From: Akkermansiaceae bacterium
GTDB taxonomy: Bacteria; Verrucomicrobiota; Verrucomicrobiia; Verrucomicrobiales; Akkermansiaceae
Length of the DNA: 64,000 bases
Assembly (NCBI GenBank): GCA_029866215.1
Contig: JARWZU010000061.1
Span: 44,337 to 108,336, forward strand
Reading direction: 5' to 3'
Part shown: positions 55,935-60,604 of the stretch, piece by piece
Position numbering within the stretch: position 1 is the stretch's first letter
Layout: every line of letters starts with the position of its first letter
Notes under the pieces: model-generated
Seen by the model: only the letters and a program-made list of their open reading frames with translations
Told to the model about the DNA's origin: nothing
Databases searched by the model: none
Translations under genes and position numbers: made by a program

Positions 55935-57572
55935 ATGAACATCGGCATCGCCCAAATCAATCCAACCGTCGGAGACTTCCCCGGCAATGTGAAGCGCATC
56001 CTCGCCGCATACCGCGAGTGCATCGATTCGGGCGCTGACCTCGTGATCACCCCTGAGTTGTCCCTCGTCGGCTACCCTCCCCAGGATCTGGTGTTTAAAT
56101 CCCAATTCGTACCGAAATGCCTGCAAGCACTCGATTACCTCGCCGGCGAGATCCGCGAGATTCCACTGCTCGTCGGCTACATCGACCACCATCATCCCGG
56201 CCACCCCGGCAAGCCATTTCGGAACGCCGCCGCGTGGCTAGAAAATGGAAAAATCCAGCACCGCATCTGGAAAACCCTTCTCCCAACCTACGATGTTTTC
56301 GACGAACGACGCTACTTCGAACCCAGCGAATCCTGCAATCCGATCGTCTGGAACGGCCATCGCATCGGGGTGACGATTTGTGAGGACATCTGGACGGAGA
56401 CCTTCCTCCAACGCCCATTTTATGACCGCGACCCCATCGCGGAACTCTCGGCCAAGGGGATCGACCTCCTCCTCAACCTCAGCGCCTCGCCGTTCCACCT
56501 CGGCAAGCCGCTGCTCCGGCGCACCATGATCGGCGCCATCGCCCGCAAATCCAAGGTGCCCGTAGTCTATTGCAATGCCGTCGGCGCAAACGACCAACTC
56601 GTTTTCGATGGAAACTCGGTCGTGGCCAATGCCAACGGCCAAATTTGCACGCAACTGCCAAGCTTCACCGAAAAATGCGCGGTCATCGACCCATTCGCTC
56701 CCAACGCAATTGAGGTCCCCTTCGACTCCTGTGATGCGGCCGATCTCTATCACGCTCTCGTCCTCGGTGTCCGCGACTACGTCACGAAATGCGGATTCTC
56801 GAGCGTTTGCCTCGGCCTGAGTGGCGGCATCGACTCGGCCCTCACCGCCGCCATCGCCGCAGACGCCCTCGGTCCAGAAAATGTGCGCGGCCTCACGATG
56901 CCAAGCCCCTACTCGTCGCGTGGCAGCGTGGACGATTCGTTTGCACTCGCGAAAAACCTCGGCATCCGCTGCGACGAGGTGCCCATCCGCAGCGCCTTCG
57001 AGGCGATTAAGGCGACCATGCAGCCGATTTTCGAAGACCGCCCCGAAGACGTGACCGAAGAAAACATGCAGGCCCGAATCCGCGGACTCATGCTCATGGC
57101 GCTCTCGAACAAAGAAAATCACCTGCTCCTCACCACGGGCAATAAAAGCGAGCTAGCGGTCGGTTATTGCACGATCTACGGCGACATGTGTGGCGGCTTG
57201 GCGGTGATTTCAGACTTGCCGAAATGCCGAGTCTACGAAGTTTCCCGCTGGATCAACCGCGACCGAGAAATCATCCCTTGGAACACAATCGACAAACCCC
57301 CAAGCGCGGAACTCCGGCCAGATCAGAAGGATCAAGACACCCTGCCGCCCTACGAAATTCTCGACGGCATTCTCGAACTCTACGTGGAGCACCAACTTTC
57401 TGCGGACGAAATCATTTCGCGTGGCTACGAGGAAACCACCGTCCGCTGGGTCCAGCGCCGCGTCGACCTGAACGAGTGGAAACGCCACCAAGCCGCCCCA
57501 GGCCTGCGCGTCACTTCCAAGGCATTCGGCATCGGCCGACGCATGCCGATCGTCCAAAAACTCATCGGCTAG
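55935..57572 (+). CDS. nadE: Glutamine-dependent NAD+ synthetase
   Basis: Nitrilase triad (PEL, KTLLP, ICED) plus synthetase GLSGGIDS, ENMQARIRG, TTGNKSE, PSAEL. Confidence 0.96.
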   Translation: MNIGIAQINPTVGDFPGNVKRILAAYRECIDSGADLVITPELSLVGYPPQDLVFKSQFVPKCLQALDYLAGEIREIPLLVGYIDHHHPGHPGKPFRNAAAWLENGKIQHRIWKTLLPTYDVFDERRYFEPSESCNPIVWNGHRIGVTICEDIWTETFLQRPFYDRDPIAELSAKGIDLLLNLSASPFHLGKPLLRRTMIGAIARKSKVPVVYCNAVGANDQLVFDGNSVVANANGQICTQLPSFTEKCAVIDPFAPNAIEVPFDSCDAADLYHALVLGVRDYVTKCGFSSVCLGLSGGIDSALTAAIAADALGPENVRGLTMPSPYSSRGSVDDSFALAKNLGIRCDEVPIRSAFEAIKATMQPIFEDRPEDVTEENMQARIRGLMLMALSNKENHLLLTTGNKSELAVGYCTIYGDMCGGLAVISDLPKCRVYEVSRWINRDREIIPWNTIDKPPSAELRPDQKDQDTLPPYEILDGILELYVEHQLSADEIISRGYEETTVRWVQRRVDLNEWKRHQAAPGLRVTSKAFGIGRRMPIVQKLIG

Positions 57573-57682: not shown

Positions 57683-58522
57683 ATGTGGAAAATCCTACAA
57701 GTCCAATGGAACGACGGCATTGAAATCTTGCTGCTCGCGACCTGCATCTACCAAATCTATCGGGCATTCCGAGCAACTCGTGCTGCCCAAATTCTTGTAG
57801 GACTCGGCGCGATCCTGATCTTCCTCACCTTGGTTTCCTCGGTGTTTAAATTTGAGGTCATCCAGTGGATCATCACCCGCGCCGCCGCCATCCTTGCATT
57901 CGCCCTGATCGTGATTTTCCAACCCGAGCTCCGCCACGGCCTCGCACGCCTCGGCAGCAAACGCCTTTTTTCCTTCTCAAGCAAACGCCGACTTGCCTTC
58001 CTCGAACGCTTCGCAGATGCCGTGATCAACCTGTCGAAAAAACGCATCGGCGCACTCTTCGCGATCCAGCGGAACATCAGCCTCAAGGAACAACTCGACA
58101 CCGGCGTGGTGCTGGATGCCGAATTTTCTCCCGAGCTTGCGATGACCGTCTTCCATCCGAAGGCCCCCCTCCACGACGGCGGCATGATCATCGCCGACGA
58201 CCGCATCGCCGGTGCCGCCTGTGTGTTCCCCGTGACCGAACGGGAAATGAACGACCGCTCAACCGGCTTGCGCCACCGCGCCGCCATCGGACTCACCGAG
58301 CGAACCGACGCCATCGCCGTGGTCGTCAGCGAGGAAACCGGTAACATCTCAATCTGCGAAAATGGCATCCTCCAACGAAACCTAACCGAGAAACAATTCC
58401 GGGAAAAAATCGAGGAGATCTTCTTCTCAAGTAAATCTTCTCATGAAACTGACCCTGCCCCAAAACTGGATCGCAAAGATCCTCTCACTCCTTCTGGCGA
58501 TCGCGATCTGGTTTCTGATTAA
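57683..58522 (+). CDS. cdaA: Membrane-bound diadenylate cyclase (c-di-AMP synthase)
   Basis: Three N-terminal TM helices, VIFQPELR, PLHDGG (DG motif), GLRHRAAIG (RHR), VSEETG. Confidence 0.95.
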   Translation: MWKILQVQWNDGIEILLLATCIYQIYRAFRATRAAQILVGLGAILIFLTLVSSVFKFEVIQWIITRAAAILAFALIVIFQPELRHGLARLGSKRLFSFSSKRRLAFLERFADAVINLSKKRIGALFAIQRNISLKEQLDTGVVLDAEFSPELAMTVFHPKAPLHDGGMIIADDRIAGAACVFPVTEREMNDRSTGLRHRAAIGLTERTDAIAVVVSEETGNISICENGILQRNLTEKQFREKIEEIFFSSKSSHETDPAPKLDRKDPLTPSGDRDLVSD

Positions 58523-58613
58523 AAACCACCTCGCCATGGAACCCTACCAGAATGCGCCGCGCGCACGTGTGGTGGAGCCTGCACCGACCTCCAAGGATCT
58601 GAAAAAAGACTGA
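58443..58613 (+). CDS. 56-aa CdaR/YbbR-like membrane peptide (TM anchor only)
   Basis: Hand-translated MKLTLPQNWIAKILSLLLAIAIWFLIKNHLAMEPYQNAPRARVVEPAPTSKDLKKD; NW..KILSLLLAI..W is the CdaR N-terminal TM pattern; sits in the cdaR position. Confidence 0.7.
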   Translation: MKLTLPQNWIAKILSLLLAIAIWFLIKNHLAMEPYQNAPRARVVEPAPTSKDLKKD

Positions 58614-58641
58614 GCCACCCCCCCCTGCCCGCAGTCACCGC

Positions 58642-59706
58642 TCACGCTTCGCGGCGCTTGCGGACCGCAGCAGCCAAGACATCGAGCGTCTTCGCGGTGT
58701 CTTCCCAACCAATGCACGCATCCGTGACCGACTGCCCACGAGTCAGCGTGGTGAGATCTTTCGCCAACTTCTGATTTCCCTCGACGAGGTTGGACTCAAT
58801 CATCACCGAAGTGATGACCTTGCAGCCCTCCGCGATCTGCTTCGCAATGTCCTGCGCCACCATGGGCTGGTTGCGGTAATCCTTCATGGAATTGCCGTGG
58901 GAACAATCGATCATCACGGACTCAGGCAATTGCTGCTCCCGTAACATCTCCGCAGCCGCCTGTACGTCAGCCTTGCCGTAGTTCGGTCCAGATTTGCCAC
59001 CACGCAGAATCAAATGGCACGACTCGTTGCCCGACGTGGAGACAATCGCAGAAACCCCTTGCTTCGTAACGGATAGAAAATGATGCGGCCGCGACGATGA
59101 CTGAATGGCATCCAAGGCGATCTGAATCGATCCACCGGTTCCATTTTTGAAACCGACCGGCATGGAAAGCCCAGACGCCAACTCACGGTGAATTTGGGAC
59201 TCGGTCGTGCGAGCACCGATCGCCCCCCAAGCGATCATGTCCGCGATGTATTGCGGCGAAATGGTGTCAAGGAATTCGGTCCCCGCAGGAACGCCACGGT
59301 TGGCCAATTCTAATAGCAGACCGCGCGCCACTCTGAGCCCGTGATTGATGTCAAACGAGTCATCCAGATGAGGGTCATTGATCAAGCCCTTCCAGCCCAC
59401 CGTGGTCCGGGGCTTTTCGAAATAAACCCGCATGATCACAAAGATGTCCTTCTCCACCCGCTTCGCCTCTTCCTTGAGCATCGCCGCATATTCAAGCGCG
59501 GCCTCAGGATCATGGATCGAGCAGGGCCCTACGATCGCCAGCAACCGATCATCCTCGCCTCGCAGAATCGCATCCGCCTGGGCACGAGCATTTGCCACCA
59601 ACTCGGCAGCACGCTCGGAAAGTGGTAAGTAATACGCTAAAACCGCCGGTGAAATGAGCGGATTCAGGCCTGTTATTCTGAGGTCGTCGGTGCGATGGAG
59701 GGTCAC
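58642..59706 (-). CDS. aroG: 3-deoxy-D-arabino-heptulosonate 7-phosphate synthase (class I-alpha, AroF/G/H type)
   Basis: VGPCSIHD, MRVYFEKPRTTVGWKG, IGARTTESQ, GFKNGT, IDCSHGN, SVTDAC; GTG 59706 inferred; isoenzyme letter uncertain. Confidence 0.93.
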   Translation of the reverse strand: MTLHRTDDLRITGLNPLISPAVLAYYLPLSERAAELVANARAQADAILRGEDDRLLAIVGPCSIHDPEAALEYAAMLKEEAKRVEKDIFVIMRVYFEKPRTTVGWKGLINDPHLDDSFDINHGLRVARGLLLELANRGVPAGTEFLDTISPQYIADMIAWGAIGARTTESQIHRELASGLSMPVGFKNGTGGSIQIALDAIQSSSRPHHFLSVTKQGVSAIVSTSGNESCHLILRGGKSGPNYGKADVQAAAEMLREQQLPESVMIDCSHGNSMKDYRNQPMVAQDIAKQIAEGCKVITSVMIESNLVEGNQKLAKDLTTLTRGQSVTDACIGWEDTAKTLDVLAAAVRKRREA

Positions 59707-59854
59707 AGGGCCGATGGTTGCCTCCACGCGGCCAACAAGGCAAGGCACAAGTTTCACATCCGAATACTTCCCCCACCGCCACAAGACGCGCCTTGTCGGT
59801 CGCCCCCAGACCTGCTTGCCTCGCTCAGTCCCAGCCGCCAATCACCCGAACCGT

Positions 59855-60604
59855 ATGAAAAAAGACCGCACCGATGCTCTGCTTGTCGCCCGCGGTCTTT
59901 GTGACTCGCGCGAACAGGCAAAACGCCTGATCCTCGCCGGCGAAGTCCGCAGCGGCGACCGGGTGATCGACAAACCCAGCGTCCAACTCGCATCCGACGC
60001 CCCTCTCGAAATCAAAGATAAACCCCGCTTCGTCGGCCGCGGCGGCCTGAAACTCGAAGGCGCACTCGATGCATTTCAAATCGACCCCACCGGCTGGGTC
60101 TGCATCGACGTCGGGGCTTCCACTGGCGGATTCACCGACTGCCTGCTCCAACGCGGTGCCATCCGAGTCCACGCGGTGGATGTCGGGACGAACCAACTCG
60201 TTTGGAAACTCCGCAACGACCCGCGCGTGATCGTGAAGGAGCAATTCAACGCCCGCCACATGGTCCCTGCCGACATCGGTGAACCGGTCCGCCTCGCGGT
60301 GATGGATCTCTCGTTCATTTCGCTCACTCTGGTGCTGCCCGCCGTTTTCTCAGTCTTGGAATCTGGCGGCTCAGTGGTCTGCCTCATCAAGCCGCAATTC
60401 GAACTCCGCCGCGAGGACATCACCCGCGGTGGCATCGTGCGCGACCCCGCCCTCCACGAGCAATCCATCGAAAAAATCCGCCACTTCGTCACTACGGAAT
60501 TCGCCTGCACCTGGAACGGCGTCATCCCGTCCTCAATCACTGGCATGGACGGCAATCAAGAATTCCTCGCATGGATCCGCCTCCCGGAATCACCCGATCC
60601 ATGA
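59855..60604 (+). CDS. tlyA: TlyA-family rRNA methyltransferase
   Basis: S4 domain, FVGRGGLKL, DVGASTGGFTD, DLSFISL, LIKPQFE, GNQEF. Confidence 0.94.
   Translation: MKKDRTDALLVARGLCDSREQAKRLILAGEVRSGDRVIDKPSVQLASDAPLEIKDKPRFVGRGGLKLEGALDAFQIDPTGWVCIDVGASTGGFTDCLLQRGAIRVHAVDVGTNQLVWKLRNDPRVIVKEQFNARHMVPADIGEPVRLAVMDLSFISLTLVLPAVFSVLESGGSVVCLIKPQFELRREDITRGGIVRDPALHEQSIEKIRHFVTTEFACTWNGVIPSSITGMDGNQEFLAWIRLPESPDP

Follow-up and report, generated by a model that had tools for sequence, protein, structure and literature searches.

A conserved small membrane protein encoded across the end of cdaA in Verrucomicrobiota, a putative minimal counterpart of CdaR

The window analysed here is a stretch of 64,000 nucleotides (nt) of DNA from an Akkermansiaceae bacterium (contig JARWZU010000061.1, positions 44,337 to 108,336). 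In it, the 3' end of cdaA, the gene of a membrane diadenylate cyclase, is overlapped by an open reading frame (ORF) of 56 amino acids (aa), called the small ORF below. Comparison with related loci leaves us highly confident that it is a real, conserved microprotein gene linked to cdaA. Its product appears to be a single-pass inner-membrane protein, and the reading that we favour, with moderate confidence, makes it the verrucomicrobial counterpart of CdaR, modulating CdaA through contact in the membrane. Full-text literature searches returned no published description of this small cdaA-linked protein.

The small ORF was first pointed out in a prediction made from the letters of the window (hereafter the original prediction), which took it for a minimal regulator that keeps only the membrane interaction of CdaR. 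The contact that this presupposes is on record: passages of PMC10243994 and of PMC12974146, the latter citing Rismondo 2016, state that CdaR and CdaA interact via their transmembrane (TM) domains.

Results

The small ORF is kept behind cdaA in all related loci

The small ORF starts with ATG and encodes MKLTLPQNWIAKILSLLLAIAIWFLIKNHLAMEPYQNAPRARVVEPAPTSKDLKKD, as read from the ORF listing and the sequence of the window. It begins 80 nt inside the 3' end of cdaA, exactly where the original prediction had placed it, and lies in the +1 frame relative to cdaA; its ATG is the first start codon past the upstream in-frame stop. The coordinates of all features are collected in Table 1. The description of the ORF as unannotated holds for the gene track that accompanied the window, but not for public metagenomes, in which near-identical ORFs have been called as genes.

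The overlapped gene encodes a cyclase of the CdaA type. Its product carries the Pfam domains CdaA_N (residues 5-82, 2.7e-12) and DAC (residues 112-228, 5.5e-38) and scores 226 bits against TIGR00159, above the equivalog cutoff of 188.8. Because the TIGR00159 match covers residues 10-248 and the ATG of the small ORF falls at codon 254, the overlap touches only the C-terminal tail of CdaA that lies beyond the family model (residues 249-279).

Three independent samples of related loci were compared. Scanning with the CdaA of the window gave 80 species-level genomes (L001-L080), metagenome-assembled genomes (MAGs) of Akkermansiaceae, Luteolibacter and Verrucomicrobiales whose CdaA is 76-98% identical. 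A CdaA alignment used as query retrieved a second set, 80 metagenome loci in which CdaA is 44-68% identical to the query, and protein searches led to ten further loci of seven distant family members. The small ORF stands at the same place in 80 of the 80 genome loci, where its ATG is kept, its length is 45-65 aa and the N-terminal motif NWIAK[IV]LSLLLA[IT]AIWFLIK is invariant or nearly so. It follows cdaA in all 73 metagenome loci with at least 150 nt of 3' sequence (median length 49 aa; 70 of 71 no longer than 103 aa), and it is found directly 3' of cdaA in all ten loci of the distant members, whose neighbourhoods differ. The original prediction of a genuine membrane protein tied to cdaA is thus matched by an ORF kept in every related locus examined.

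Two findings could have turned this picture around, as the original prediction itself had noted: a full-length cdaR in relatives, which would make the ORF a truncation, or a lack of conservation. Among about 160 related loci, no full-length cdaR was found 3' of cdaA, so that no local truncation is seen, and the ORF is conserved under purifying selection.

The distance between the two genes varies widely. In the metagenome loci they stand up to 60 nt apart or overlap by as much as 143 nt, a variation which implies that conservation of the small ORF is independent of the CdaA tail. CdaA itself varies in length by lineage, from 247 to 306 aa among seven that were aligned. The guanine-cytosine content at the three codon positions is 0.68/0.48/0.70 in the tail of the small ORF and resembles that in the body of cdaA (0.61/0.41/0.76), as a real gene would.

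The locus is found mainly in DNA runs from freshwater and lake metagenomes, along with a few that are marine or unlabelled.

Selection in the overlap acts on the second frame

The 80-nt overlap is ungapped in 74 loci, which provide 73 distinct sequences. Over these we calculated column entropy for each codon position, position 2 of the small ORF coinciding with the third position of cdaA. In the 120 nt 5' of the ATG, entropy is 0.33 at position 1, 1.15 at position 2 and 0.49 at position 3. In the core of the overlap (codons 7-26 of the small ORF), the corresponding values are 0.17, 0.11 and 0.60. The peak of variation moves from the third position of cdaA upstream to the third position of the small ORF in the core, where the third codon position of cdaA has become the least variable of all.

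Such a switch of the three-base periodicity across 73 sequences points to purifying selection in the second frame of the overlap, as expected of overprinting; it implies that selection acts on the small protein, with the CdaA tail as a passenger. Judged by this pattern, the small ORF is the constrained frame, and the CdaA tail (residues 254-279) is overprinted on the anchor codons of its partner. Where T, P, A and S replace one another in the CdaA tail, the first base of an NCN codon has changed, which is silent in the small ORF. The start codon follows the same rule: entropy is 0 at all three bases of the ATG, while the CdaA residue encoded over it alternates between H and N. Loci outside the ungapped set likewise keep the ATG at the corresponding place.

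The anchor resembles that of CdaR

We built a family profile from 34 members and ran it against 1.84 billion representative proteins (E<=1e-3). It returned 135 matches, each representing a cluster, all of 29-146 aa. Five of them are N-terminal fragments of true CdaR from Veillonella, with E-values of 1e-5 to 4e-4. The best characterised of these, P0133 (profile E=2e-4), has a Pfam YbbR domain (1.1e-8), which makes it a positive control for detecting this domain, and matches the Protein Data Bank entries 5hqh (Listeria Lmo2119) and 2l3u. Close relatives of P0133 (P0171, 83% identical) bear the NCBI name 'CdaR family protein'. When the Veillonella anchor KRNWPAKILSLLAAIVMWFFI is set against that of the window, PQNWIAKILSLLLAIAIWFLI, they have the helix pattern N-W-x-A-K...S-L-L-x-A...W in common, with about 14 of 21 positions identical. 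A search seeded with Veillonella CdaR returned Veillonella fragments alone.

The profile is highly specific. Tried on the window and 92 loci, translated as 13,816 six-frame segments, it picks out exactly one ORF per locus and nothing else at E<=10. A broader alignment of the anchor, run against 5.8 billion proteins, retrieved only proteins of 40-81 aa that have no Pfam domains. About ten of these were independently given the label 'YbbR domain-containing protein' by the JGI pipeline, in line with a relation to CdaR, and the NCBI name for family members is 'hypothetical protein [Verrucomicrobiales bacterium]'. As an oddity of the databases, the 90%-identity cluster of P0001, a near-identical homologue of the small protein, also lists P0236, an unrelated 377-aa protein of the moth Hyposmocoma kahamanoa.

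Pfam detects no YbbR domain in any member of the family, longer relatives of 81-192 aa included, and the small protein does not belong to the YbbR family (PF07949, COG4856). What it has is a TM anchor of the N-terminal CdaR type, as a short segment matched in a single CdaR lineage. Because the YbbR domain is missing, we file it as a domain-minimal variant of CdaR and not as a member of that family. The likeness of the anchors suggests that the small protein is probably derived from, or homologous to, the anchor of CdaR.

One predicted helix and a disordered tail with a conserved motif

AlphaFold2, supplied with the family alignment, predicts a single helix at residues 7-32, with a predicted local distance difference test score (pLDDT) of 85-90 over residues 11-30; a hydropathy scan concurs. 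The helix carries the family motif N-W-x-A-K-x-x-S-L-L-L-A-x-A-I-W-F-L-I-K. Residues K12, A19 and W23 are invariant among 69 diverse anchor sequences, including two true Veillonella CdaR anchors.

The remaining tail of about 28 residues has no secondary structure in the AlphaFold2 model (pLDDT 55-68), and proline makes up 14% of tail residues across relatives. The original prediction described the protein as nothing beyond a TM anchor, and here it went too far. Of the 74 distinct proteins of L001-L080, 72 have a conserved motif in the tail, [PL][RK]A-x-x-V, about 13 residues past the helix. The distance is 13 residues in 49 of 66 proteins, and the motif keeps its frame across linkers of 9-17 aa; it is also present in many distant family members.

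We predict that the N-terminus is inside and the tail periplasmic, a topology taken over from CdaR that fits the two lysines before the helix. The protein would then show the three parts of a reduced CdaR: a short cytoplasmic N-terminus, a CdaR-type anchor and a disordered periplasmic tail with its motif.

Two departures from this plan were seen among the matches. In P0103, P0114, P0117 and P0195, the N-terminal motif is duplicated before the anchor, as in KNWRAKLLSVLRARLTLENWRAKLMSVLLATTVWYLIKK, which looks like an extra amphipathic segment. P0050, P0052, P0140, P0142 and P0143 form a long-tail subfamily (96-146 aa) with a second motif, approximately 'RLHW-x-E', occurring as YRLHWIE, HRLHWLE and ARLHWLE and without a Pfam match.

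The small ORF occupies the place of cdaR

Genes on either side of the pair change from locus to locus. Across L001-L080, the genes next to it on the upstream side belong to at least 40 unrelated clusters and those on the downstream side to 25, and cdaA with the small ORF is the sole constant pair among the changing flanks. The original prediction had singled out as atypical the linkage of nadE to cdaA and the absence of glmM. Both are true of the window, which has no glmM in its 64 kb. They are due to a local rearrangement in the window and its two closest relatives and are not a feature of the system: nadE precedes cdaA in 2 of 67 related loci. The DAHP synthase lies downstream in 7 of 64.

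A wider order emerges from the metagenome loci. There, folP stands ahead of cdaA in 54 of 69 and glmM comes immediately after the small ORF in 20 of 63, which makes the arrangement folP-cdaA-mini(-glmM). One Verrucomicrobiales MAG (L092) has it in full, folP-cdaA-small ORF-glmM, its glmM scoring 543 bits on TIGR01455. The small ORF is thus encoded directly 3' of cdaA and, as glmM follows directly in these 20 of 63 loci, occupies the cdaR slot of the cdaA-cdaR-glmM module. The likeness to a CdaR partner put forward in the original prediction therefore stands on two counts, the match of the anchor profile to Veillonella CdaR and this slot before glmM in many relatives.

We also looked for a split cdaR, in which the anchor gene would be followed by a separate YbbR gene. 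None of ten different downstream neighbours, which include aroB, a response regulator, an AMP-binding enzyme, Der and ThuA, has a YbbR domain.

Genes of aromatic amino-acid biosynthesis recur beside the pair of cdaA and small ORF. A convergent DAHP synthase of the aroG type is found there in 9 loci, the window included, and a co-directional aroB (3-dehydroquinate synthase) begins at the stop of the small ORF in 8 loci (L025 4907-6052 and seven similar ones).

In the window, 28 nt (58614-58641) separate the stop of the small ORF from that of the convergent DAHP synthase. They include the C-rich run CCACCCCCCCC and contain no terminator-like hairpin; related metagenome contigs show a 4-5 nt deletion at 58615 relative to the window. 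Rfam and promoter/terminator scans gave nothing relevant and no convincing terminator. Further along, the DAHP synthase ORF, listed with a TTG start, and a TlyA-like S4/FtsJ methyltransferase ORF (59654..60604, + strand) overlap by 188 nt (59654-59841). This overlap is probably unreal and the true starts probably lie further in, as the Pfam matches begin at residues 91 and 74, respectively.

Table 1 Features of the cdaA locus in the window
Feature	Position	Strand	Description
nadE, glutamine-dependent NAD synthetase	55935..57572	+	Pfam NAD_synthase, CN_hydrolase; upstream of cdaA
cdaA	57683..58522	+	Membrane diadenylate cyclase, 279 aa; three N-terminal TM helices and DAC domain
Small ORF ('mini-CdaR')	58443..58613	+	Gene of a putative single-pass membrane protein; conserved across loci
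Start codon of the small ORF (ATG)	58443..58445	+	Invariant among aligned loci
Overlap of cdaA and the small ORF	58443..58522	+	80 nt; anchor codons appear to double as CdaA tail (overprinting)
TM helix, residues 7-32	58461..58538	+	Predicted by AlphaFold2 and hydropathy scan
Pro-rich disordered C-terminal tail	58539..58610	+	Predicted periplasmic; AlphaFold2, composition
Tail motif P-R-A-R-V-V	58557..58574	+	Family pattern [PL]-[RK]-A-x-[IVP]-V
DAHP synthase (aroG-type), convergent	58642..59841	-	Pfam DAHP_synth_1 1.3e-94; downstream of the small ORF

Discussion

Proposed role and the points that weigh against it

We now propose how the small protein may act. The small ORF would share a transcript with cdaA, its translation starting at its own invariant ATG. 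The helix of its product would pack on the N-terminal TM domain of CdaA in the way of the CdaR anchor of Firmicutes, and this contact would modulate the oligomerisation or activity of CdaA and hence the synthesis of cyclic di-AMP (c-di-AMP). In the periplasm, the tail motif could take over from the YbbR domains as a contact point for peptidoglycan or some other component of the envelope. By analogy with CdaR, we lean slightly towards the view, the most economical one, that the small protein regulates CdaA through membrane contact, and a tuning of c-di-AMP independent of YbbR, as put forward in the original prediction, is plausible.

In B. subtilis, sensing of the peptidoglycan status has been attributed to the disordered extracytoplasmic region of CdaR (Brogan 2025, cited after bioRxiv 10.64898/2026.09.06.749708). 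The tail described here could for this reason be a minimal sensor in the diderm periplasm, which is speculation. Taken to its full extent, the proposal would be that much of the Verrucomicrobiota swapped CdaR for an obligate CdaA membrane subunit of about 50 aa whose tail motif informs the cyclase about the condition of the envelope or the peptidoglycan; we consider this doubtful.

Several observations speak against the proposed role or leave it exposed. The small protein has no Pfam or NCBIfam match at E<=1, and its homology to CdaR extends over about 25 residues of the TM segment, with one lineage, Veillonella, above threshold. No Shine-Dalgarno-like sequence precedes its ATG. An artificial fusion of CdaA(1-253) with the small protein, modelled by AlphaFold2 without an alignment, reached a mean pLDDT of 49, too low to be of use, and was discarded. 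The sole RNA evidence is one 151-nt metatranscriptome contig (58518-58672) that may derive from either strand and also spans the end of the convergent DAHP synthase gene; being single, short and ambiguous in strand, it was set aside as evidence of expression. These genomes could also have the gene of a full-length YbbR protein at another locus; the CdaR-like gene of Porphyromonas gingivalis was found by STRING association and not through an operon shared with the cyclase gene (PMC9259658). Finally, the effect of CdaR itself is disputed even in Firmicutes: it is reported to activate CdaA in B. subtilis, but to inhibit it in Listeria and S. aureus (PMC10117814).

Alternative explanations

The small ORF could encode a real, cdaA-linked membrane protein that is neither derived from CdaR nor a regulator of the cyclase. 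Such a protein could aid membrane insertion or stability or have another target, and its likeness to CdaR could be a convergence of TM helices. The lack of any Pfam or NCBIfam match would fit, as would a resemblance confined to the anchor and to one lineage above threshold, and a tail that has nothing in common with YbbR domains. Yet the polar N-W-x-A-K that precedes the helix is common to Veillonella CdaR, and the profile that finds it is highly specific; moreover, in 20 of 63 loci the small ORF takes the position of cdaR, with glmM directly behind it, and it stays linked to cdaA without exception as the flanks vary. We hold this explanation to be unlikely. Far less credence goes to the idea that a full-length cdaR was recently truncated in this genome or is decaying there, a reading that would account for a CdaR-like anchor deprived of YbbR domains. 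All 80 species-level genomes and 73 more distant loci have the short form, which is under purifying selection; its lengths vary little (45-65 aa in L001-L080, with a median of 49 aa among the metagenome loci) and no YbbR remnant lies downstream, so that we find a truncation scarcely credible.

Two further readings do away with the small protein as a product of its own, or place it beside another. If there were no separate protein, constraint would act on the CdaA tail, or else the 3' end of cdaA would contain a constrained RNA or DNA element; the 26 best-conserved codons are indeed those that overlap cdaA, and the CdaA tail also appears conserved (...LDRKxPxxxSGDRDLVSD). However, the overlap is least variable at the third and most variable at the first position of cdaA, which is the opposite of what constraint on CdaA coding would produce. 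Conservation also runs beyond the cdaA stop into the tail motif, and the same protein is kept elsewhere with its ORF 4-60 nt past that stop or overlapping by 1-35 nt; neither an Rfam family nor a convincing terminator was detected. This reading is strongly disfavoured, and we rate it as very improbable. The remaining one is a programmed +1 ribosomal frameshift that would add the anchor to CdaA as a fourth, C-terminal TM helix, instead of or alongside the free small protein. It draws on the position of the ORF in the +1 frame of cdaA, on overlaps of 80-143 nt in many lineages, on the natural CdaA-CdaR fusions of streptococci (PMC10243994) and on a few database proteins that resemble in-frame fusions (P0096, P0121). 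Against it, the ATG shows no variation even though the CdaA residue encoded over it does, and several lineages have an intergenic gap across which no frameshift is possible. The apparent fusions that were looked up come from frameshift-ridden long-read contigs in which adjacent genes are broken too, and a frameshift product seems to us highly improbable.

The candidates for an in-frame fusion of CdaA with the anchor (P0096, P0121, P0161 and P0182, the last from Veillonella) would, if genuine, count as Rosetta-stone evidence, but were treated as likely artefacts. Two fusions were looked up in their contigs (L086 3352-4321 and L088 2818-3228); both contigs are long-read, and folP, ftsW and cdaA are frameshift-split in them as well.

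Significance

The roles of the YbbR domains and of the disordered region of CdaR are unsettled (PMC10117814). A verrucomicrobial partner that consists of a helix and a short tail would isolate the membrane contact and thereby make it directly testable how CdaR acts on CdaA, an essential c-di-AMP synthase; it would offer for study a natural minimal version of CdaR, widespread across Verrucomicrobia. If the tail does report the state of the envelope, YbbR domains would be dispensable for CdaR-type signalling, and a helix with a disordered tail would be its minimal functional core. The small ORF also adds a conserved microprotein overlooked by length cut-offs, and the overlap would be a clean case of overprinting, a cyclase tail shaped by the codons of its partner.

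Verrucomicrobia include Akkermansia. The c-di-AMP of gut bacteria is of interest as a trigger of host STING signalling (PMC12901056), which lends some applied interest to the subject at the level of Verrucomicrobia.

Comparison with known systems

The known CdaR/YbbR proteins (B. subtilis CdaR, Listeria Lmo2119 and Veillonella CdaR) resemble the small protein in being encoded next to cdaA and, in many relatives, ahead of glmM. They also resemble it in their build, a short N-terminus and one TM helix followed by a remainder predicted to be extracytoplasmic. The differences lie in that remainder. Known CdaR proteins have three or four YbbR domains (PMC10243994), whereas the small protein has none and, at 45-65 aa in this clade, compares with a far larger multi-domain CdaR. 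Its extracytoplasmic part is, unlike that of CdaR, a disordered stretch of about 28 residues in which a single short motif stands. Again unlike CdaR, it matches no Pfam or NCBIfam model, and its anchor codons are here, by the pattern of variation, overprinted on the CdaA tail.

In the streptococcal CdaA-CdaR fusions, the CdaR helix is predicted to pack on the first helix of CdaA (PMC10243994, citing the UniProt entries A5LQF8, E1M7C3 and V8IIN0). There, the C-terminus of CdaA and the CdaR anchor are directly joined; here, each has its own gene and start codon, and the frames of the two differ. The fusions seen in databases for the small-protein family are likely assembly artefacts.

The disordered region of B. 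subtilis CdaR, as cited from Brogan 2025, is alike in being a membrane-anchored, disordered extracytoplasmic segment on the partner of CdaA. In Bacillus and streptococcal CdaR, the disordered region comes after the YbbR domains and is Ser/Thr-rich (PMC12041528). The tail of the small protein, in contrast, directly follows the helix, is Pro-rich and is much shorter.

MgtS, AcrZ, KdpF and the SpoVM-type microproteins are small single-pass proteins that modulate larger membrane proteins. The protein described here is like them in its size of about 50 aa, its one predicted helix, the position of its gene beside that of the presumed partner and in having been missed by length cut-offs. Unlike them, it seems to descend from a known multi-domain regulator whose sensory domains were lost, and to have become fixed in this form across much of a phylum.

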